Part shown: positions 7,163-56,521 of the stretch, one piece after another | Position numbering within the stretch: the stretch's first letter is position 1 | Layout of the letters: each line of letters starts with the position of its first letter | Made by a program: the position numbers and the translations under genes | The notes under the pieces: model-generated | The model's database searches: none | Told to the model about the DNA's origin: nothing | What the model saw: only the letters and a program-made list of their open reading frames with translations | Assembly: GCA_000146045.2 (NCBI GenBank) | Contig: BK006947.3 | Span: 512,001-576,000 of the forward strand | Length of the DNA stretch: 64,000 nucleotides | From: TPA_inf: Saccharomyces | Lineage: Eukaryota | Direction: 5' to 3'

Positions 7163-7496
7163 TGTTGGAATAAAAATCAACTATCATCTACTAACTAGTA
7201 TTTACGTTACTAGTATATTATCATATACGGTGTTAGAAGATGACGCAAATGATGAGAAATAGTCATCTAAATTAGTGGAAGCTGAAACGCAAGGATTGAT
7301 AATGTAATAGGATCAATGAATATTAACATATAAAACGATGATAATAATATTTATAGAATTGTGTAGAATTACAGATTTCCTTTTATGGATTCCTAAATCC
7401 TCGAGGAGAACTTCTAGTATATTCTGTATACCTAATATTATAGCCTTTATCAACAATGGAATCCCAACAATTATCTCAACATTCACCCATTTCTCA
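7163..7496 (+). repeat. Ty1 5' LTR (delta), 334 bp
   Basis: It runs from TGTTGG to TCTCA. Visual comparison with the 3' LTR at 12729-13062 found no differences. Confidence 0.9.
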
Positions 7497-8778
7497 TGGT
7501 AGCGCCTGTGCTTCGGTTACTTCTAAGGAAGTCCACACAAATCAAGATCCGTTAGACGTTTCAGCTTCCAAAATTCAAGAATATGATAAGGCTTCCACTA
7601 AGGCTAACTCTCAACAGACAACAACACCTGCTTCATCAGCTGTTCCAGAGAACCCCCATCATGCCTCTCCTCAAACTGCTCAGTCACATTCACCACAGAA
7701 TGGGCCGTACCCACAGCAGTGCATGATGACCCAAAACCAAGCCAATCCATCTGATTGGTCATTTTACGGACGCCCATCTATGATTCCGTATACACCTTAT
7801 CAAATGTCGCCTATGTACTTTCCACCTGGGCCACATTCACAGTTTCCGCAGTATCCATCATCAGTTGGAACGCCTCTGAGCACTCCATCACCTGAGTCAG
7901 GTAATACATTTACTGATTCATCCTCAGCGGACTCTGATATGACATCCACTAAAAAATATGTCAGACCACCACCAATGTTAACCTCACCTAATGACTTTCT
8001 AAATTGGGTTAAAACATACATCAAATTTTTACAAAACTCGAATCTCGGTGGTATTATTCCGACAGTAAACGGAAAACCCGTACGTCAGATCACTGATGAT
8101 GAACTCACCTTCTTGTATAACACTTTTCAAATATTTGCTCCATCTCAATTCCTACCTACCTGGGTCAAAGACATCCTATCCGTTGATTATACGGATATCA
8201 TGAAAATTCTTTCCAAAAGTATTGAAAAAATGCAATCTGATACCCAAGAGGCAAACGACATTGTGACCCTGGCAAATTTGCAATATAATGGCAGTACACC
8301 TGCAGATGCATTTGAAACAAAAGTCACAAACATTATCGACAGACTGAACAATAATGGCATTCATATCAATAACAAGGTCGCATGCCAATTAATTATGAGA
8401 GGTCTATCTGGCGAATATAAATTTTTACGCTACACACGTCATCGACATCTAAATATGACAGTCGCTGAACTGTTCTTAGATATCCATGCTATTTATGAAG
8501 AACAACAGGGATCGAGAAACAGCAAACCTAATTACAGGAGAAATCCGAGTGATGAGAAGAATGATTCTCGCAGCTATACAAATACAACCAAACCCAAAGT
8601 TATAGCTCGGAATCCTCAAAAAACAAATAATTCGAAATCGAAAACAGCCAGGGCTCACAATGTATCCACATCTAATAACTCTCCCAGCACGGACAACGAT
8701 TCCATCAGTAAATCAACTACTGAACCGATTCAATTGAACAATAAGCACGACCTTCATCTTAGGCCAGAAACTTACTGA
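7456..8778 (+). CDS. TYA: Ty1 TYA (Gag), 440 aa; the ATG lies inside the 5' LTR
   Basis: [26 protein letters not shown]... is canonical Ty1 Gag. The ORF is intact. Confidence 0.95.
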
Positions 8779-11700
8779 ATCTACAGTAAATCATACTAAT
8801 CATTCTGATGATGAACTCCCTGGACACCTCCTTCTCGATTCAGGAGCATCACGAACCCTTATAAGATCTGCTCATCACATACACTCAGCATCATCTAATC
8901 CTGACATAAACGTAGTTGATGCTCAAAAAAGAAATATACCAATTAACGCTATTGGTGACCTACAATTTCACTTCCAGGACAACACCAAAACATCAATAAA
9001 GGTATTGCACACTCCTAACATAGCCTATGACTTACTCAGTTTGAATGAATTGGCTGCAGTAGATATCACAGCATGCTTTACCAAAAACGTCTTAGAACGA
9101 TCTGACGGCACTGTACTTGCACCTATCGTAAAATATGGAGACTTTTACTGGGTATCTAAAAAGTACTTGCTTCCATCAAATATCTCCGTACCCACCATCA
9201 ATAATGTCCATACAAGTGAAAGTACACGCAAATATCCTTATCCTTTCATTCATCGAATGCTTGCGCATGCCAATGCACAGACAATTCGATACTCACTTAA
9301 AAATAACACCATCACGTATTTTAACGAATCAGATGTCGACTGGTCTAGTGCTATTGACTATCAATGTCCTGATTGTTTAATCGGCAAAAGCACCAAACAC
9401 AGACATATCAAAGGTTCACGACTAAAATACCAAAATTCATACGAACCCTTTCAATACCTACATACTGACATATTTGGTCCAGTTCACAACCTACCAAAGA
9501 GTGCACCATCCTATTTCATCTCATTTACTGATGAGACAACAAAATTCCGTTGGGTTTATCCATTACACGACCGTCGCGAGGACTCTATCCTCGATGTTTT
9601 TACTACGATACTAGCTTTTATTAAGAACCAGTTTCAGGCCAGTGTCTTGGTTATACAAATGGACCGTGGTTCTGAGTATACTAACAGAACTCTCCATAAA
9701 TTCCTTGAAAAAAATGGTATAACTCCATGCTATACAACCACAGCGGATTCCCGAGCACATGGAGTCGCTGAACGGCTCAACCGTACCTTATTAGATGACT
9801 GCCGTACTCAACTGCAATGTAGTGGTTTACCGAACCATTTATGGTTCTCTGCAATCGAATTTTCTACTATTGTGAGAAATTCACTAGCTTCACCTAAAAG
9901 CAAAAAATCTGCAAGACAACATGCTGGCTTGGCAGGACTTGATATCAGTACTTTGTTACCTTTCGGTCAACCTGTTATCGTCAATGATCACAACCCTAAC
10001 TCCAAAATACATCCTCGTGGCATCCCAGGCTACGCTCTACATCCGTCTCGAAACTCTTATGGATATATCATCTATCTTCCATCCTTAAAGAAGACAGTAG
10101 ATACAACTAACTATGTTATTCTTCAGGGCAAGGAATCCAGATTAGATCAATTCAATTACGACGCACTCACTTTCGATGAAGACTTAAACCGTTTAACTGC
10201 TTCATATCAATCGTTCATTGCGTCAAATGAGATCCAACAATCCGATGATCTTAACTTCCAATCTGACATCGAACTACATCCTGAGCAACCGAGAAATGTC
10301 CTTTCAAAAGCTGTGAGTCCAACCGATTCCACACCTCCGTCAACTCATACTGAAGATTCGAAACGTGTTTCTAAAACCAATATTCGCGCACCCAGAGAAG
10401 TTGATCCCAACATATCTAAATCTGATATCCTTCCATCAAAGAAGAGATCTAGCACCCCCCAAATTTCCGATATCGAGAGTACTGGTTCGGGTGGTATGCA
10501 TAGATTAGATGTTCCTTTACTTGCTCCCATGTCCCAATCTAACACACATGAATCGTCGCACACCAGTAAATCTAAAGATTTCAGACACTCAGACTCGTAC
10601 AGTGACAATGAGACTAATCATACAAACGTACCAATATCCAGTACGGGTGGTACCAATAATAAAACTGTTCCGCAGACAAGCGAACAGGAGACTGAGAAAA
10701 GGATTATACACCGTTCACCTTCGATCGATACTTCCTCATCAGAAAGTAATTCACTACACCACGTCGTTCCTATCAAAACGTCAGATACCTGTCCTAAGGA
10801 GAATACAGAGGAATCTATAATTGCTGATCTTCCACTTCCCGATCTGCCTCCAGAACCTCCTACCAAATTATCAGACTCCTTTAAAGAACTTCCACCGATC
10901 AATTCTCGTCAAACTAATTCCAGTTTGGGTGGTATTGGTGACTCTAATGCCTATACTACTATCAACAGTAAGAAAAGATCATTAGAAGATAATGAAACTG
11001 AAATTAAGGTATCACGAGACACATGGAATACTAAGAATATGCGTAGTTTAGAACCTCCGAGATCGAAGAAACGAATTCACCTGATTGCAGCTGTAAAAGC
11101 AGTAAAATCAATCAAACCAATACGGACAACCTTACGATACGATGAGGCAATCACCTATAATAAAGATATTAAAGAAAAAGAAAAATATATCGAGGCATAC
11201 CACAAAGAAGTCAATCAACTGTTGAAGATGAAAACTTGGGACACTGACAAATATTATGACAGAAAAGAAATAGACCCTAAAAGAGTAATAAATTCAATGT
11301 TTATCTTCAACAGGAAACGTGACGGTACTCATAAAGCTAGATTTGTTGCAAGAGGTGATATTCAGCATCCTGACACTTACGACTCAGGCATGCAATCCAA
11401 TACCGTACATCACTATGCATTGATGACATCCCTGTCACTTGCATTAGACAATAACTACTATATTACACAATTAGACATATCTTCGGCATATTTGTATGCA
11501 GACATCAAAGAAGAATTATACATAAGACCTCCACCACATTTAGGAATGAATGATAAGTTGATACGTTTGAAGAAATCACTTTATGGTTTGAAACAAAGTG
11601 GTGCAAACTGGTATGAAACGATCAAATCATATCTGATTGAACAATGTGATATGGAAGAAGTTCGCGGATGGTCATGCGTATTTAAGAATAGTCAAGTAAC

Positions 11701-12706
11701 AATTTGCTTATTCGTTGATGATATGATATTGTTCAGCAAAGACTTAAATGCAAATAAGAAAATCATAACAACACTCAAGAAACAATACGATACAAAGATA
11801 ATAAATCTGGGTGAAAGTGATAACGAAATTCAGTACGACATACTTGGATTAGAGATCAAATATCAAAGAAGCAAGTACATGAAATTAGGTATGGAAAAAT
11901 CTTTGACAGAAAAATTACCCAAACTAAACGTTCATTTAAATCCAAAAGGAAAAAAACTTAGCGCTCCAGGTCAACCAGGTCTTTATATAGACCAGGATGA
12001 ACTAGAAATAGATGAAGATGAATACAAAGAGAAGGTACATGAAATGCAAAAGTTGATTGGTCTAGCTTCATATGTTGGATATAAATTTAGATTTGACTTA
12101 CTATACTACATCAACACACTTGCTCAACATATACTATTCCCCTCTAGGCAAGTTTTAGACATGACATATGAGTTAATACAATTCATGTGGGACACTAGAG
12201 ATAAACAACTGATATGGCACAAAAACAAACCTACCAAGCCAGATAATAAACTAGTCGCAATAAGCGATGCTTCATATGGTAACCAACCATATTACAAGTC
12301 ACAAATTGGTAACATTTTCCTACTCAACGGAAAAGTGATTGGAGGAAAGTCGACAAAGGCTTCGTTAACATGCACTTCAACTACAGAAGCAGAAATACAC
12401 GCAGTCAGTGAAGCTATTCCGCTATTGAATAACCTCAGTCACCTTGTGCAAGAACTTAACAAGAAACCAATTATTAAAGGCTTACTTACTGATAGTAGAT
12501 CAACGATCAGTATAATTAAGTCTACAAATGAAGAGAAATTTAGAAACAGATTTTTTGGCACAAAGGCAATGAGACTTAGAGATGAAGTATCAGGTAATAA
12601 TTTATACGTATACTACATCGAGACCAAGAAGAACATTGCTGATGTGATGACAAAACCTCTTCCGATAAAAACATTTAAACTATTAACTAACAAATGGATT
12701 CATTAG
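7456..12706 (+). CDS. TYB: Ty1 TYA-TYB (Gag-Pol) fusion made by +1 ribosomal frameshift at CTT-AGG-C (8758-8764); Pol encodes protease, integrase and RT/RNase H
   Basis: The +1 frame is open from 8762 to the TAG at 12704-12706 as far as checked; no stop codon occurs between 8762 and 9005, while the rest of that span rests on the provided ORF track. The protease motif [13 protein letters not shown], the integrase zinc finger plus DDE motif, and YVDDM in the RT are present. Confidence 0.9.
8758..8764 (+). promoter_or_regulatory. Ty1 programmed +1 frameshift site (CTT AGG C heptamer)
   Basis: The exact heptamer sits at the Gag/Pol overlap. The Gag frame ends 14 nt downstream at 8776-8778. Confidence 0.9.
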
Positions 12707-12728
12707 ATCTATTACATTATGGGTGGTA

Positions 12729-13062
12729 TGTTGGAATAAAAATCAACTATCATCTACTAACTAGTATTTACGTTACTAGTATATTATCATATACGGTGTT
12801 AGAAGATGACGCAAATGATGAGAAATAGTCATCTAAATTAGTGGAAGCTGAAACGCAAGGATTGATAATGTAATAGGATCAATGAATATTAACATATAAA
12901 ACGATGATAATAATATTTATAGAATTGTGTAGAATTACAGATTTCCTTTTATGGATTCCTAAATCCTCGAGGAGAACTTCTAGTATATTCTGTATACCTA
13001 ATATTATAGCCTTTATCAACAATGGAATCCCAACAATTATCTCAACATTCACCCATTTCTCA
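12729..13062 (+). repeat. Ty1 3' LTR (delta), 334 bp
   Basis: It is preceded by the PPT and ends TCTCA right before the TSD AAACT. Confidence 0.9.
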
Positions 13063-35077: not shown

Positions 35078-35093
35078 ACCACACGAAATAATC

Positions 35094-35196
35094 GGGCGTG
35101 TGGTCTAGTGGTATGATTCTCGCTTTGGGCGACTTCCTGCCTAAACAGGAAGACAAAGCATGCGAGAGGCCCTGGGTTCAATTCCCAGCTCGCCCC
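35094..35196 (+). tRNA. tP(UGG): tRNA-Pro(UGG) with a 31-nt intron (35130-35160)
   Basis: The exons are GGGCGTGTGGTCTAGTGGTATGATTCTCGCTTTGGG and TGCGAGAGGCCCTGGGTTCAATTCCCAGCTCGCCCC. The anticodon is TGG, a B-box GGTTCAATTCC is present, and a T-run terminator follows. Confidence 0.95.
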
Positions 35197-36099
35197 GTTA
35201 TCTTTTTTCACCATCAGGGCGGAATTTTTTTGTTTAGCATCAATCAACCTAACCTCTCATGCTTCTCCAAGCTGAAAGAAGTAAACTCACTCTATGTACG
35301 TGTTGCAACATATATCTGCCAAAAGAATGAAAGTAGGTTCAGAACAAACAGATTGAAAGGAGACCAGTAAAACTATATGGGGGGGGTTGTTCTTCCCGCC
35401 TCCTTCTGGGATTATGAAGACGCGCTGATCTGCTATAGTTCAACGTCCTTTTCGCTTACTATTTCTGGTAAGAAATATAAGGAATTCTCGGATTAATTAC
35501 TTTTCTCGAAAGGGGATTCCGAACACCTACCGGAAAAAAATAGCAGCCCTTAAGGGGAGAGTACGGCTCTTGGCATGACGGGAGGCAGGACAGCACTAAA
35601 GGCAGACTAGTCACTGAGCGCTCCAAGTTGGGTATGATAGTATCTTCAAGTTTTGGTCGAGTAGCTATTCCTCTTCTTCAAAGCCACTTACGCTTCGCCC
35701 AATAATGTCATGATTTACAAATAAACCTTCCTCTCCGAACCCTTAAAAGTAGGCAAATTGAGAAAATTTTTTGCTCGTCTTTTTTTCTCTCGTTTCGATT
35801 ACCTTATTGGGAACTTCTCGAAGAACTCGGCGAAGAGGTCCAGAGGAAGATTACTGACTATCATCAAGCCTTGTTTCTTTTGGCCTCTTCAGTAAGCTGC
35901 AAATGCAGTATTGGCTTTTTTAAAAAAGAAAAAGAGAAGGAAAGCGGAAACTAGTCTTGTTGCTCTTCTAGTGCAGTTGTTGTTTGTTCATTTGTTTCTT
36001 AATAACAGTCAACGAGAAAACTTGCGCGTGCAGTAGGAAAATAAGTAGCAAATTACATTACATGGAAAACTTGCAACCATCTGTGAGCACAGGCGACCA

Positions 36100-48765: not shown

Positions 48766-48959
48766 CCGTTATTACGGTCTGTGATCCAGCAAATGTCAGA
48801 TATAACGAATTGAAGTTGCTTTTCCCATCAATGTTTGTCAAGTTGAAACGCTGTAGCACACACTAAGCATTAACGACTATATTACAAGTAAAGCATCAAA
48901 TGATTACTTAAAAGAGTAATCGCAAACTATATTGAAGTTGGCAAAGGCACATGATCCAA

Positions 48960-50032
48960 ATGGTAACGATAACAACATATATGAAAAGTAGTGTTCTAGG
49001 AAACTTCGATAGGGGAGAAAGTACGTAAAAAAAATAATTTTGAGTTGGATTCGAAGTTCCATTAATATCTTGGATAATTAAGTTTGCTGCGTGAGAGACA
49101 GGCAGATTCGGCTTCACAGGAATAAACTCCTATAATTTAAAGGAACTTGTTAGTGTTAGCACTATAAGTAAGAAAAAGTAAATTCTGGCAGTGTTGCTTT
49201 TAATCGCAATAATATTTGATTTACATTCAAACAGTTTCATATACCTCTTTGATAGAACATATTTGCATATGTGTTTATTTGTTTTTTATTTTTTTTTGAT
49301 TACTTCTTTTCAAAAACTAAATGTGAACAAAGAAGAAAAAGGAGTATAAAAGAATAAATAATAGCGGTATTACGTGTGTTGGAAAAAGAATCATAGATCG
49401 TCAATGGACTAGTATTTGTATTACCAGTATTATTATAATATGGATCGTAAGAAGATAACATAAAACATAGAAACAGTTGTCAAATCCTTGCACAATTCTA
49501 ACATTCATTATCCTATTACATTATCAATCCTTGCATTTCAACTTTCCATCAAATTTAATGATTTGTTTTCAATCTTTATGTCTTCTTTTTACATCGCATA
49601 TGATACTGTTGGAACGAGAGTAATTAATAGTAACATGAGTTGCTATGGTAACAATCTAATGCTTACATCGTATATTAATGTACAACTCGTATACGTTTAA
49701 GTGTGATTGCGCCTATTGCAGAAGGAATGTTAAACGAGAAGCTCAGACAATACTGAAGCTGTGTTAAAGATCTATTAGTTGAACATGATATGGTAGGTAC
49801 ATATATGAGGAATATGAGTCGTCACATCAATGTATAGTAACTACCGGAATCACTATTATATTGGTCATGATTAATATGACCAATCGGCGTGTGTTTTATA
49901 TACCTCTCTTATTTAGTATAAGAAGATCAGTACTCACTTCTTCATTAATACTAATTTTTAACCTCTAATTATCAACAGATACCATGCTAGTATTACAAAT
50001 AATACTAAACAGATGATGTTAGAGTTTCATTC
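48960..50032. repeat. Mosaic of degenerate solo-LTR fragments between tRNA-Thr and the Ty2: an unclassified fragment (~48960-49110), a degenerate delta (~49490-49650, minus orientation) and another LTR-like end (~49780-49980)
   Basis: The 49505-49640 fragment aligns with the delta internal region (CATT.ATCCTATTACATTATCAATCCTTGC.TTTCA.CTTCCA...). The reverse complement of 49780-49980 begins TGTTGATAATTAGAGG. The 48990-49075 core recurs at 13243-13330. Confidence 0.4.
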
Positions 50033-50386
50033 TGAAAAGAATGTGGATTTTGATGTAATTGTTGGGATTCCATTTTTTATAAGGCAATAATATTAGGTAT
50101 GTAGATATACTAGAAGTTCTCCTCGAGGATTTAGGAATCCATAAAAGGGAATCTGCAATTCTATACAATTCTATAAATATTATTATCATCATTTTATATG
50201 TTAATATTCATTGATCCTATTACATTATCAATCCTTGCGTTTCAGCTTCCACTAATTTAGATGACTATTTCTCATCATTTGCGTCATCTTCTAACACCGT
50301 ATATGATAATATACTAGTAACGTAAATACTAGTTAGTAGATGATAGTTGATTTTTATTCCAACATACCACCCATAATGTAATAGAT

Positions 50387-53300
50387 CTAATGAATCCATT
50401 TGTTAGTTAATAGTTTAAATGTTTTTATCGGAAGAGGTTTTGTCATCACATCAGCAATGTTCTTCTTGGTCTCGATGTAGTATACGTATAAATTATTACC
50501 TGATACTTCATCTCTAAGTCTCATTGCCTTTGTGCCAAAAAATCTGTTTCTAAATTTCTCTTCATTTGTAGACTTAATTATACTGATCGTTGATCTACTA
50601 TCAGTAAGTAAGCCTTTAATAATTGGTTTCTTGTTAAGTTCTTGCACAAGGTGACTGAGGTTATTCAATAGCGGAATAGCTTCACTGACTGCGTGTATTT
50701 CTGCTTCTGTAGTTGAAGTGCATGTTAACGAAGCCTTTGTCGACTTTCCTCCAATCACTTTTCCGTTGAGTAGGAAAATGTTACCAATTTGTGACTTGTA
50801 ATATGGTTGGTTACCATATGAAGCATCGCTTATTGCGACTAGTTTATTATCTGGCTTGGTAGGTTTGTTTTTGTGCCATATTAATTGTTTATCTCTAGTG
50901 TCCCACATGAATTGTATTAACTCATATGTCATGTCTAAAACTTGCCTAGAGGGGAATAGTATATGTTGAGCAAGTGTGTTGATGTAGTATAGTAAGTCAA
51001 ATCTAAATTTATATCCAACATATGAAGCTAGACCAATCAACTTTTGCATTTCATGTACTTTCTCTTTGTATTCATCTTCATCTATTTCTAGTTCATCCTG
51101 GTCTATATAATGACCTGGTTGACCTGGAGCTCTAAGTTTCTTTCCTTTTGGGTTCAAAGGTACGTTTAGTTTGGGTAATTTTTCTGTCAAGGATTTTTCC
51201 ATACCTAATTTCATGTACTTGCTTCTTTGATATTTGATCTCTAATCCAAGTATGTCGTACTGAATGTCGTTATCACTTTCACCCAGATTTATTATCTTTG
51301 TATCGTATTGTTTCTTGAGTGTTGTTATGATTTTCTTATTTGCATTTAAGTCTTTGCTGAATAATATCATATCATCAACGAATAAGCAAATTGTTACTTG
51401 ACTATTTTTAAATACGCATGACCATCCGCGAACTTCTTGCATGTCGCAACAATTTATTAAATATGATTTAATGGTTTCATACCAGTTTGCACCACTTTGT
51501 TTCAAACCATAGAGTGATTTTCTCAAACGTAGTAATTTATCATTCAAACCTAAATGTGGTGGAGGTCTTATGTATAATTCTTCTTTGATATCAGCATATA
51601 AGTAAGCAGAGGATATGTCCAGCTGTGTGATATAATAGTCGTTGTCTAATGCGATTGACAGTGACGTCATCAGTGCATAGTGATGTACGGTATTGGATTG
51701 CATATCAGAATCATATGTATCGGGGTGTTGAATGTCGCCTCTTGCAACAAATCTAGCTTTGTGTGTACCATCACGTTTCTTGTTAAATATAAACATTGAG
51801 TTTATTACTTTTTTAGGATCTATGTCATTTCTATCATAATATTTGTTTGTATCCCAAGTGTTCATTTTCAATAGTTGGCTAATTTCTTTATGATAAGCTT
51901 CAACATATCTGTCTTTTTCTTTGTTGTCTTTATTATAAGTAATTGCTTCATCATATCTTAAGGTCGTTCGAACTGGTTTGATCGATTTCACTCCTTTTAT
52001 TGCTGCAATTAAATTTATGCGTTTCTTCGATCTTGGTGGTTCCAGACTTCTCATATTCTTATTATTCCATGTGTCTCGGGATACCTCAATTTCAGTTTCA
52101 TTATCTTCTAATGATCTTTTCTTACTTTTGGTAGTAGTCAGAACATTAGAATCATCCATACCACCCAAACTGGAATTAGTCTGACGAGAGTGTATGTGTG
52201 GAATATCTTTTGAAACATCAGAAGTGTCCGTAGGAGATTGATGGGTTAAGTCAGGAAGTGGGAGGTCGTCAAGAATAGAATCAGCCGTAACATTTTTTGA
52301 GGATTTGTCAGGCATTATATTAGGAGTCGCATGGTCAGAAGATCGATATTCTGGCGGATCCGTATCAATGGAGGGTGTATTATCACATACAGCCTTTGTT
52401 TCTATGGAGATGATGGGAGTAGTGGATTCACTGTTGGACGAACGGTCATCTATTGAGGGCGTACTATTTGTAGTCCTGTATTTGATATTTGTATCACTAT
52501 TTCGTTGAATATATGGTTCCTCCGTACCACCCAAACGTGTAGTTTTGATGTTTTCAAGTCCATAATTAACTCTATCCTGTGAGGTCAAATCAATCATATC
52601 ATTGGGACTACCAGGTCGCTTTTGGTTTCGTGCAGTGAAGGTAGACGAGTGTCTAGGTGAAGTAGTATCTGATTCAACGGTACCAACCATTTCGGTACTC
52701 TCTTTATTAATGATATGGGGTGTACGAGATCGTATAGTAGATGGAAGAATATTGTATTCAGATATGTCGGCATCAACTTCTTTTGGTGCACGTACTTTTT
52801 GGACTGGTTCCTTGTCTAATTGTAAAGGGTTTATTGATTGGGACGAGAAGTCGTTCACTAGAGGATCAGAGTTTATTTCAATCTCCGATTGATAGTCATG
52901 ATCAGATTCTGTATTTTGATCATATGACTGCTCCGTTTCATTTTGTTCAATAAAAGATTGGTTATGGGCTGTTAAACGATTGAGATCATCATCAAAAGTG
53001 AGTGTATCGTAGTCGAACTGGTCCAATTTCGTTTGCTTGTTTTGTAATATAACGTAATTGGTAGTATCTACTGTCTTTTTTAATGATGGAAGATAGATAA
53101 TATAGCCATAAGAGTTTCGTGACGGATGTAAGGCGTAACCTGGAATGCCACGAGGATGTATTTTCGAGTCGGGATTATGGTTGTTAACTATAACCGGTTG
53201 ACCGAAAGGTAGTATAGTAGTAATGTCCAGTCCAGCTAAACCTGCATGTTGTCTTGCGGATTTATCGTTTTTTGGTGAGACTAATGAATTTCTGATTATA

Positions 53301-54427
53301 GTAGAAAATTCGACTGCTGAGAACCATAGATGATTTGGTAGACCACTGCAATGAAGCAGTGTGCGACAATCGTTTAATAAAGTACGATTTAATCGTTCAG
53401 CGACACCGTGTGCTCTAGAATCTGCCGTGGTTGTATAGCATGCAGTAATACCTCTGTTCGTAAAGAACTTATGAAGAGTTTTGTTAGTGTACTCGGAGCC
53501 ACGATCCATCTGGATAACTAGAACGCGAGCATTGAATTGGTTCTTAATAAATGCTAATATCGATGTAAAAACATTGAGGATAGATTCTTCACGACGGTCG
53601 TGTAATGGGTACACCCATTGGAATCTGGTTTTCTCATCTGTAAACGATATAAAGTAAGAAGGTGCACTTTTCGGTAAGTGATGTACAGGACCAAATATAT
53701 CGGTATGCAAGTACTGAAAAGGCTCATATGATTCTTGGTACTTTAGTCGTGATCCTTTGACATGTCTATGTTTCGTGCTTTTGCCGATTAGACAGTCAGG
53801 ACATTGATATGTGCTAGCGTTAGACCATTCAATATCCGATTCCTTCAAATATGTAACTGCATTCTTCTTAAGAGACTTCTGAATACTTCGGAAGTTAGCA
53901 TGTCCAAGCATTCGATGTATTAACGGATATGGATATTTATTTACGCTTTTGCTTTTGTTGACGTTGTTTATTGTTAGCTTTGAAATGTGCGAAGGAATTA
54001 GGTATTTTTTAGATAACCAGTAAAAGTCTCCATGTTTGACTATGGGAGCTAGTACTGTACCATCCGATCTTTCTAAAGTGTTTCTGGTAAAGCAGGCAGT
54101 AATATTTTGATTAGCCAGCTCACTCAAACTTAATAGATCATAGGCTATGTTTGGTGTGTGTAGTGCTTTTATTGATGTTTTGGTGCCGTTCTGAAAGTTG
54201 AAGTGAAGATTACCAATGGCATTTATAGGAATGTCTTGTTTTTGAGCATCGACTATGTTTATTTCAGAATTGGGTGTTGCATGGTGTAAATAATGGGCTG
54301 ATCTGACAAGCGTTTGCGAAGCTCCTGAATCAATAAGAAGGTGATCAGGTAGTTCGTCATTCGAGTCTACTGTGTGTGTTGGCTTAGATTCTTTCTGTTG
54401 CTGGCCTAAGACTAAGTTCGTTGTCAT
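50387..54427 (-). CDS. TYB: Ty2 TYB (Pol: protease, integrase, RT/RNase H) reading frame, expressed as a Gag-Pol fusion by +1 frameshifting
   Basis: The ORF is open for 1,346 codons and overlaps the Gag 3' end by 44 nt. Its C-terminal ~560 aa are near-identical to the Ty1 Pol at 11050-12706. Confidence 0.85.
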
Positions 54428-55701
54428 CGCTTAAGTATTGTGATGAAACGGTTGATTCATTAATGTGATCATTGTTCACCCTTGAGAATTTACTAGATGT
54501 AGCAATATTGTGAGCTTTTGCTGCTCTTGGTTTTGAACTATTTGTTCTCTGATAATTACGAGTTGTAACCTTTGTGTTAGTCGTGTTTGGAGATGTGCGA
54601 GAAACATTTTTGTATTCGCTGTGTTGTTTGTATTGGGACGGTTTATTTAGATTCATGATTTTATTTTCGTCATATATTAACTGAATTTCAGCGAATAATT
54701 GGGAAAGTTTCATGTTCGTTTTGGTACGATATTGATTACGTAGGTATTTGAAGTCACCGGATAGACCTTTAAGTATTAGTTGACAGGCCAATCTGTCGCT
54801 AACATTGATATTGTTTTCTTTTAGCCTCTGAATGATCGTACTGACTGTAATTTCAAATGTATCAGCAGATGTACTTCCGTCGTACTCAAGGTTGGCAAGA
54901 GCTATCCAATCCTTTAATTCTTGATTGTTAGTTTGCATTTTGGACACACTTTTACAAAGGACTGTAAGGATGTCAGCATAATTAATTTCTAAAATTTGTT
55001 TTACCCATGTTGGCAATAAATGAAATGGGGCAAATGCTTGGAAGGTATTGTATATATACGCATGTTCTTCATAAGTCATTTGTCTTTTGATTTCACCCTG
55101 GTCATTTGGAATGATGTCACCGAGATTAGAGTTCTTCAAAAATCTGATGTAAAATTTAACCCATGTAGAAAAGTTTTCTTCTGATGTTAAAGTGTGTGGT
55201 GGTAAGACGTTATTTCCCACCTTTGTCTTAGCTTGAGGTATTTCAGAGTGTTGATTTTTTAAATCGATTGGATCAGGTGAGGAAGTACTCAGTGGTGGGA
55301 TATACCGTGGCAACGGATAGTGTGGGTCCGGTTGATAATACGCAGGTGACGTTTGATAATGTGAACACGTCATCATAGATGGTTGTTGGTAATGTGCCCA
55401 GTTAGAGGCCATAGCTTTGTTTGGGGTCATCATGCCGTGCTGTTGGTACTGTCCATTCTGTGGAGGTGGTACTGAAGCAGGTTGAGGAGAGACATGATGA
55501 TGGTTCTCTGGAACAGCTGATGTCCCAGGTGTTGTCTCTTGTTGAGAATTAACCTTAGTGGAATCTCTATCAAATTCCGGTAAATTGGAAGCTGAAACGG
55601 CTAACGGATCTTGATTTGATGGGACTTCCTTAGAAGTAACCGAAGCATAGGCGCTACCATGAAGAAAAATGTGGATTTTGATGTAATTGTTGGGATTCCA
55701 T
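54384..55701 (-). pseudogene. TYA: Ty2 TYA (Gag) whose conserved LTR ATG (reverse complement at 55699-55701) is put out of frame by a 1-nt insertion in the 5' LTR
   Basis: From the conserved ATG the frame reads [15 protein letters not shown] (TAG at 55654-55656). The Gag body, from ...[14 protein letters not shown] onward, is in a different frame. The 5' LTR end reads CCACATTTTTCTTCA, one nt longer than the same element's 3' LTR (CCACATTCTTTTCA). Confidence 0.6.
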
Positions 55702-56114
55702 TTTTTATAAGGCAATAATATTAGGTATGTAGATATACTAGAAGTTCTCCTCGAGGATTTAGGAATCCATAAAAGGGAATCTGCAATTCTATACAATTCT
55801 ATAAATATTATTATCATCATTTTATATGTTAATATTCATTGATCCTATTACATTATCAATCCTTGCGTTTCAGCTTCCACTAATTTAGATGACTATTTCT
55901 CATCATTTGCGTCATCTTCTAACACCGTATATGATAATATACTAGTAACGTAAATACTAGTTAGTAGATGATAGTTGATTTTTATTCCAACACATTCCAA
56001 TACCACTGATAAGTACATTCTGCATGTCTATTTATAAAACCTTCTTTAAGACAAATATGCTATTTATCCTTTGATAACAATTTCCTGTGAGACAGAAATC
56101 ACCATAAAATAATC

Positions 56115-56217
56115 GGGCGTGTGGTCTAGTGGTATGATTCTCGCTTTGGGCGACTTCCTGCCTAAACAGGAAGACAAAGCATGCGAGAGGCCCTGGGTTC
56201 AATTCCCAGCTCGCCCC
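56115..56217 (+). tRNA. tP(UGG): tRNA-Pro(UGG), second copy, identical to 35094-35196 including the 31-nt intron (56151-56181)
   Basis: The 103-nt sequence is identical to the first copy, and a T-run follows. The 5' flank differs from copy 1 (no sigma; a Ty2 LTR lies 122 bp upstream). Confidence 0.95.
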
Positions 56218-56521
56218 TTTATATTTTTTCACCATCAACGTGGTGTTTCACTTATTCCTTTTCTAGTATTTTTTTTCCACCTTATAGAAGCGTGCACGTT
56301 TAATGCTGGAGATAAAAAAAAAAAATGCATTAATACTCTATATAGCAGAAATATAGTTGTTATAACATTGTACCAACAAAAGAAGCCCTATGAAGATAAA
56401 CTATGATCTAGAAGTATCAACTTGTTTGGAATGTATGCTTCGTTTTTTAAGTTATAGAGTAGTTCTGCCGAAATCTCTTGCAGATGTTAGGCATCTCTTT
56501 AGATGTATTGTCTTTATGAAA

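Follow-up and report, generated by a model that had tools for sequence, protein, structure and literature searches.

The question raised by this locus is whether an apparently complete Ty2 retrotransposon has really lost the connection between its Gag start codon and the Gag reading frame, and if so what this means for the copy and how the change came about. The element lies on the minus strand of a 64,000-nucleotide (nt) window of Saccharomyces DNA (contig BK006947.3 of assembly GCA_000146045.2, positions 512,001 to 576,000), in which a sequence-only reading had noticed a Ty2 copy with a 1-nt insertion in its 5' long terminal repeat (LTR). The element is YNLCTy2-1, located on Saccharomyces cerevisiae chromosome XIV of the S288C reference between NCE103 and YNL035C. 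It is very probable that this is a young, strain-specific and otherwise intact Ty2 with a net gain of one base in the last 8 nt of the U5 region of its 5' LTR, that it is non-autonomous and that the defect was likely present from birth. The defect is real and of an ordinary, already recorded kind, in a copy that is already catalogued.

A Ty2 element with a displaced start codon

YNLCTy2-1 has all the structural features of a Ty2 and lacks the one that marks an autonomous copy, an AUG in the Gag frame. It is bounded by direct repeats of the expected size (about 332-334 bp) with TG...CA ends; the 5' LTR is followed at once by a primer-binding site (PBS) for tRNA-iMet, and a polypurine tract (PPT) precedes the 3' LTR. 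The Gag body matches the Pfam TYA model over its whole length (E=1.4e-204), whilst the Pol frame has the integrase domain (rve) before the reverse transcriptase (RVT_2), the copia order. Genes transcribed by RNA polymerase III lie nearby, as is usual for Ty2, the distances from the ends of the element being 1.27 kb for tRNA-Thr(AGU) and 1.87 kb for tRNA-Ile(AAU). When Gag and Pol are joined conceptually at CTTAGGC, an established Ty +1 frameshift site (Belcourt and Farabaugh 1990, cited in PMC7055915), the product is 99.1% identical to that of Ty2-C (NP_009909.2) over residues 1-1770 without gaps. This identity, together with the LTRs, PBS, PPT and target-site duplication, bears out the assignment to Ty2, and the LTR-PBS-Gag-CTTAGGC-Pol-PPT-LTR layout is shared with canonical copies (Ty2-C/YCLWTy2-1, NP_009909.2, and Ty2-OR2, Gag NP_620390.1). 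The 425-codon Gag body and the Pol frame are open to their stops, as had been claimed, and apart from its start the element is intact.

The lesion lies at the very end of the 5' LTR. The two LTRs match exactly over their first 325 nt, and all their differences fall in the last 7-8 nt of U5, where the 5' copy is one base longer than the 3' copy (333 against 332 bp). The proposed 1-nt insertion stands as a net gain of one base; it does not stand as a clean insertion of a T, as the minimal difference between the two ends is one substitution plus one 1-nt insertion or deletion (indel), and the run of five Ts that had been placed at 55666-55670 actually occupies 55665-55669. The 3' LTR ending would hold the AUG in the Gag frame (H-S-F-H-G), in agreement with the sequence-only reading. 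Among the retrieved copies, only a handful of other Ty2 elements, the commonest ending is CATTCTCTTCA, which encodes H-S-L-H-G; the 3' LTR is one substitution away from it, and the 5' LTR one substitution and one extra base. A different Ty2 copy (L021), on an adapter-contaminated contig from a metagenome scan for U5/PBS junction variants that gave three loci, ends in CATTTTCTTCA, with four Ts, in frame (H-F-L-H-G) and one T fewer than the 5' LTR of YNLCTy2-1.

The effect of the extra base on the reading frame is direct. Minus-strand ATGGAATCC begins at 55701, as does ATGGAATCCCAACAATTACATCAAAATCCACATTTTTCTTCATGGTAGCGCC, and the frame from this ATG reaches TAG (55656-55654) after 15 codons, as had been noted. 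This stop is the UAG within the PBS, TGGTAGCGCC, a 10-nt site that follows the 5' LTR in both Ty1 and Ty2 (PMC4974528). In canonical Ty2 elements 11 nt follow CCA (CATTCTCTTCA or in-frame variants) and the AUG reads into Gag, whereas in YNLCTy2-1 there are 12 nt and the frame stops at the PBS UAG. Of ten Ty2 5' ends compared, only that of YNLCTy2-1 has the +1 state.

Independent sequences, annotation and the age of the insertion

A lesion that includes a run of five Ts could in principle be a homopolymer miscount, the true AUG being in frame, and indels are indeed found elsewhere in long-read assemblies of this locus. The assemblies used for comparison were found through the exact YNL035C protein; they are chromosome-scale and contain the Ty2. 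L001, assembled de novo, differs from the window by only seven scattered 1-nt gaps in 11 kb, and L004, also de novo, is noisy, with 95% identity and many gaps, whilst L002 agrees with the window at every base over 11.2 kb (100% identity) and for that reason may be reference-derived. All three have ...CCACATTTTTCTTCA joined to TGGTAGCGCC at the 5' LTR, and L001 and L002 have ...CCACATTCTTTTCA at the 3' LTR. A metagenome contig (L005) enters the same LTR at the same junction and covers 54 nt of it. Moreover, a 478-amino-acid (aa) open reading frame (ORF) that runs from an ATG in U3 into the Gag body (minus strand, 54387-55820) matches UniRef100_A2P2P8, the PIR 'TyA protein, retrotransposon Ty2.N', exactly. 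As this ORF exists only with the frameshift, the original chromosome XIV sequence that gave the old PIR/TrEMBL entry had the same bases. The substitution between the LTRs, in addition, is not something that a homopolymer miscount produces. An independent sequence with one T fewer, which would have spoken for an error, was thus encountered neither in L001, L002 and L004 nor in the old record, and a sequencing or assembly artefact can be rejected with a negligible residual chance.

The 'Ty2.N' record, public for decades, concerns the same object, its 478-aa ORF being exact and without any sequence difference. It differs from current annotation in that the old TYA start was placed at the U3 ATG, whereas the assemblies examined call no gene. 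The possibility that the 478-aa ORF is a genuine, extended form of Gag was considered and dismissed; its ATG is in U3 and precedes the presumed start of the transcript, and the ORF is a by-product of the frameshift. The old annotation masked the frameshift by means of an upstream ATG that the transcript is unlikely to contain. No gene is called inside the element in L002 or L003, both annotated by NCBI, and the 1346-aa Pol-frame ORF is not in the protein collection that was searched. The start defect accounts for the absence of gene calls, in the assemblies examined, from this one of the 13 full-length S288c Ty2 copies. Ty2 Gag and Pol fragments are also deposited under bacterial names (Streptococcus uberis, S. 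canis, Lactococcus lactis, Blautia wexlerae and Parabacteroides merdae), and these are almost certainly yeast DNA contaminating the assemblies concerned.

The neighbouring ORF translations are taken to be those of IDH1, NCE103, YNL035C, BDP1 and SIW14, and it is because NCE103 and YNL035C are the immediate neighbours that the element is YNLCTy2-1. YNL035C lies 530 bp upstream of the Ty2 on the same strand. Two papers were found that name YNLCTy2-1, both only as a rearrangement breakpoint, and a literature search found no explicit published account of its frameshift. The insertion is young and strain-specific, since its site is empty, with a single CATTC, in nine of the ten loci retrieved from other strains via NCE103, and since the LTRs are identical for 325 nt. 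The flanks are identical to the window in three of the nine empty-site loci.

The surrounding DNA has received other insertions. Two other strains (L027:11000-17000 and L031:12000-18600) carry different Ty insertions between NCE103 and YNL035C with the YNLCTy2-1 target site empty, and insertions thus have a hotspot in this intergenic region. Old, diverged fragments of delta, the Ty1/Ty2 LTR (48918-49091 and 49499-49605; 72-80% identity), occupy parts of the interval from tRNA-Thr to the Ty2, and this interval is a target of repeated insertion. A 131-nt repeat with 98.5% identity has one copy on the YNL035C side of the Ty2, between the two (56107-56237), and a second about 21 kb from there (35086-35216); it probably represents part of an LTR of another family. 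Short-read contigs of the locus end in many cases at about 56193. Elsewhere in the window (7163-13062, plus strand) lies an intact Ty1-type element. Its 334-bp LTRs are 100% identical, U5 ends included, its target duplication is AAACT, its Gag ORF encodes 440 aa, CTTAGGC occurs at 8758 and its Pol frame is open. The features of YNLCTy2-1 are collected in Table 1.

Table 1. Features of YNLCTy2-1, by position in the 64,000-nt window
Feature	Position	Strand	Basis
Full-length Ty2 (YNLCTy2-1), 5960 bp	50033-55992	-	LTR pair, Gag-Pol alignment, flanking genes
Target-site duplication, upstream copy (GAATG on element strand)	55993-55997	.	empty site single-copy in other strains
Target-site duplication, downstream copy	50028-50032	.	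same GAATG 5-bp repeat
5' LTR, 333 bp, TGTTGG...TTCA, ending ...CCACATTTTTCTTCA	55660-55992	-	LTR comparison
U3 ATG in Gag-body frame, upstream of presumed transcript start	55818-55820	-	heads 478-aa ORF
GAGGAGA, presumed transcript start (R)	55746-55752	-	homology to Ty1 nt 1-7
Gag AUG (55701-55699), context AAAAAAUGG, and 15-codon frame to UAG (55656-55654)	55654-55701	-	sequence
Divergent U5 terminus of 5' LTR, TTTCTTCA, net +1 base; T5 run 55665-55669	55660-55667	-	LTR comparison
PBS TGGTAGCGCC, intact; internal TAG is the shifted-frame stop	55650-55659	-	identity per PMC4974528
Gag body, own frame, HGSAYASV...RPATERI, 425 codons and stop (54384-54386)	54384-55661	-	translation
First Gag-frame AUG past the lesion (canonical Met90); a truncated Gag of 349 aa would start here	55431-55433	-	sequence
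CTTAGGC +1 frameshift heptamer, in frame with Gag body	54404-54410	-	sequence
Pol frame, open to stop (Pol_BBD, rve, RVT_2)	50387-54406	-	Pfam, alignment
PPT TGGGTGGTA, adjoining 3' LTR	50365-50373	-	sequence
3' LTR, 332 bp, ending ...CCACATTCTTTTCA	50033-50364	-	LTR comparison
U5 terminus of 3' LTR, CTTTTCA; would hold AUG in frame	50033-50039	-	LTR comparison

Predicted consequences for the proteins and the RNA

The Ty2 mRNA is expected to start within the 5' LTR, at R (about 55752), and so would carry the altered U5. The first seven nucleotides of Ty1 RNA are GAGGAGA (PMC4974528), and a transcript start at the corresponding 55752 would put the Gag AUG of YNLCTy2-1 at RNA nt 52 and its PBS at nt 94. 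Ribosomes initiating at 55701, the only well-placed AUG, would be in the wrong frame and would terminate 15 codons on at the PBS UAG. Neither Gag nor Gag-Pol would then be made, the latter needing the same AUG together with the +1 shift at CTTAGGC. As Pol is synthesised solely in fusion with Gag, starting from the disconnected AUG, the copy would be non-autonomous, which upholds the suggestion of the sequence-only reading, and it could be expected to move only with proteins supplied in trans.

An alternative is that the copy still makes useful protein, through +1 recoding (at UUU-U or UGG-UAG-C), through leaky scanning or reinitiation at Met90 or from the U3 ATG on a read-through transcript of YNL035C. 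A +1 shift anywhere from the T run to the UAG would regain the Gag frame. Known +1 sites of yeast include CUU-AGG-C in Ty1, GCG-AGU-U in Ty3 and an antizyme-type shift at a stop codon; a shift-prone codon in the P site is followed there by one that is decoded slowly. The local sequence here, CAU-UUU-UCU-UCA-UGG-UAG-C, is unlike these and contains no known +1 heptamer (CUU-AGG-C or GCG-AGU-U), and the frame break does not look like a programmed recoding site. The next Met in the Gag frame, which had been put about 100 codons into Gag, is in fact at 55433 and corresponds to canonical codon 90. Initiation there would have to bypass a first AUG in strong context and four further out-of-frame AUGs that lie between the 15-codon ORF and Met90 (55660, 55648, 55495 and 55456). 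As to the third route, the U3 ATG (55820) shares the frame of the Gag body and opens the 478-aa ORF, and YNL035C is close by on the same strand, but this ATG is upstream of the presumed transcript start and current annotations have no gene at the element. Production of useful protein is on balance very unlikely.

A Met90-initiated product would resemble the Ty1 p22/p18 factor in being an N-terminally truncated Gag; the difference is that Met90 in YNLCTy2-1 stands behind five AUGs. Ty2 is reported to have no self-encoded copy-number control and to be unresponsive to p22 (PMC7055915).

The RNA of the copy is a different matter, as the cis elements R, U5, PBS, PPT and the LTR termini are intact. 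It could still be packaged and copied by the proteins of other Ty2 or Ty1 copies. A mini-Ty1 transposes with proteins supplied in trans and needs only about 380 nt from the 5' end and 357 nt from the 3' end (PMC4974528); given this precedent and the intact cis elements, mobilisation of YNLCTy2-1 in trans by other Ty2 or Ty1 copies is plausible. Like mini-Ty1 and other non-autonomous LTR elements, YNLCTy2-1 keeps its cis sequences whilst its proteins are predicted not to be made. Unlike mini-Ty1, it keeps its full coding capacity, apparently silenced by a single lesion in the frame of the start. Under the standard retroviral scheme the U5 of both progeny LTRs is copied from the 5' end of the RNA, and progeny of YNLCTy2-1 would carry the defective U5 in both LTRs. 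Early termination can send yeast mRNAs to nonsense-mediated decay (PMC1657058), and the early stop probably exposes the YNLCTy2-1 RNA to this pathway, which would lower its level.

Origin of the altered U5 end

The evidence leans, with considerable room for doubt, towards a lesion that arose at the U5/PBS junction in the very reverse-transcription cycle that made YNLCTy2-1, such that the copy was dead on arrival. Both differences between the LTRs fall within the last 8 of 333 nt. For two independent changes after insertion, uniform mutation gives this a probability of about (8/333)^2 = 6e-4, the 8-nt stretch having been selected post hoc. The U5 end or the PBS holds every indel seen in a set of ten Ty2 5' ends. 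The N-termini of Ty2 Gag proteins are nearly invariant except at codons 7-13, with variation densest at codons 10-13, which are encoded by the last bases of U5 (HSLHG, RSLHG, HCPHG, SPNLHG and SPNFHG).

The same ends could have been reached by decay after integration, the LTRs having been inserted with identical, in-frame ends and slippage or substitution having later altered U5 in the 5' LTR, the 3' LTR or both. Runs rich in T and C are prone to slippage, and the in-frame T4 ending of the L021 copy is only one T from the 5' LTR of YNLCTy2-1. This course would nevertheless demand, in an insertion that is very young and polymorphic, at least two independent changes (three from a T4 parent) within 8-11 nt and none in the flanks or in the remaining 325 nt of either LTR; it is considered unlikely.

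The mechanics of replication provide a natural place for an error in one LTR only. In the standard scheme, U5 of the 3' LTR derives from minus-strand strong-stop DNA and U5 of the 5' LTR from plus-strand strong-stop DNA that is copied up to the tRNA junction. A change that is specific to the 5' LTR and adjoins the PBS therefore fits an error at the plus-strand strong-stop step or a second, co-packaged RNA. Gabriel et al. in 1996 and Mules et al. in 1998 reportedly found that Ty1 reverse-transcription errors are non-random and occur at strand ends, the U5/PBS border included, and the types of error are said to comprise heterogeneity of RNase H cleavage, non-templated addition and dislocation or realignment. 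The likeness of YNLCTy2-1 to these reported Ty1 hotspots lies in LTR differences in the last U5 bases beside the PBS that have the appearance of dislocation or slippage along a stretch of pyrimidines. The difference is that the Ty1 studies reportedly followed marked elements in single-cycle assays, whereas the event in YNLCTy2-1 is read back from one genomic copy.

The second, co-packaged RNA leads to a recombinational origin, in which the 5' U5 end came from another Ty2 RNA in the same particle, through a template switch or a heteroduplex formed at plus-strand transfer, or in which ectopic conversion from another Ty2 copy later replaced the 5' U5/PBS region. One step separates either LTR end from the common ending, and two steps separate the ends from each other. 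At least 19 recombination events have been found among the 13 S288c Ty2 copies (PMC3511429), and Ty1/2 hybrids arise from heterozygous particles (PMC4022208). Set against this, no donor with the T5 ending (CATTTTTCTTCA) was found among the few copies retrieved, such a donor would itself have been frameshifted or the indel would still have to be new, and the intact target duplication indicates that there was no crossover between elements. A recombinational origin is accordingly rated as improbable, though worth keeping in view beside an error during reverse transcription.

Other junction variants were encountered in the course of the comparison. L011:90-140 has a frame-breaking ending at the same junction, CCACATTCCACA followed by TGG (-2), and L013:176-226 has a Ty1-type ending there, CACCCATCTACA followed by TGG (-1). 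In L014:9735-9790, a Ty2 of YJM789, there is a 1-nt deletion inside the PBS (TGGTGCGCC). Some of these three lesions may be assembly errors. In a further Ty2, L018:1170-7460, the LTRs differ at five positions, of which three fall within the final 5 nt of U5, and no matching target duplication is present; it is probably the recombination product of two insertions. Its discordant ends were considered as a second example and set aside, the LTRs coming from different insertions without a matching target duplication.

Several points weigh against the account given here, with respect both to the origin of the lesion and to its effect. The sample of other Ty2 ends is small, and L011, L013 and L014 came to light by way of truncated Gag calls, a route that enriches for broken starts. 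The case for reverse transcription is circumstantial. Neither LTR end equals the commonest ending, CATTCTCTTCA, so that one simple error is insufficient to explain both, and two co-packaged parental RNAs or ectopic conversion are possible. The transcript start is taken from homology to Ty1, the loss of protein is read from the DNA, and leaky scanning, reinitiation or spontaneous +1 slippage may give a low level of rescue.

A bolder proposal is that the last 10 or so nucleotides of Ty2 U5, which have the Gag AUG on one side and a PBS with a UAG in the +1 frame on the other, are a systematic error zone of reverse transcription and that Gag-less newborns act as a built-in brake on Ty2, a family in which p22-type copy-number control is reported to be absent. 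This is highly speculative and is thought very unlikely to be correct. If it were true, a noticeable share of new Ty2 insertions, YNLCTy2-1 among them, would be born Gag-less, and the packageable RNA of such copies would compete for the Gag and Pol of intact copies and pass the defect on to their progeny. In a weaker variant, a truncated Gag initiated at Met90 of YNLCTy2-1 may disturb particle assembly.

For Ty2 in S. cerevisiae the lesion has a practical and a more general meaning. Counts of active Ty2 copies and copy-specific expression maps should treat YNLCTy2-1 as an RNA-only element that would depend on proteins in trans. More generally, YNLCTy2-1 offers a natural case in which an asymmetry between the two LTRs marks the replication step that probably killed the copy.

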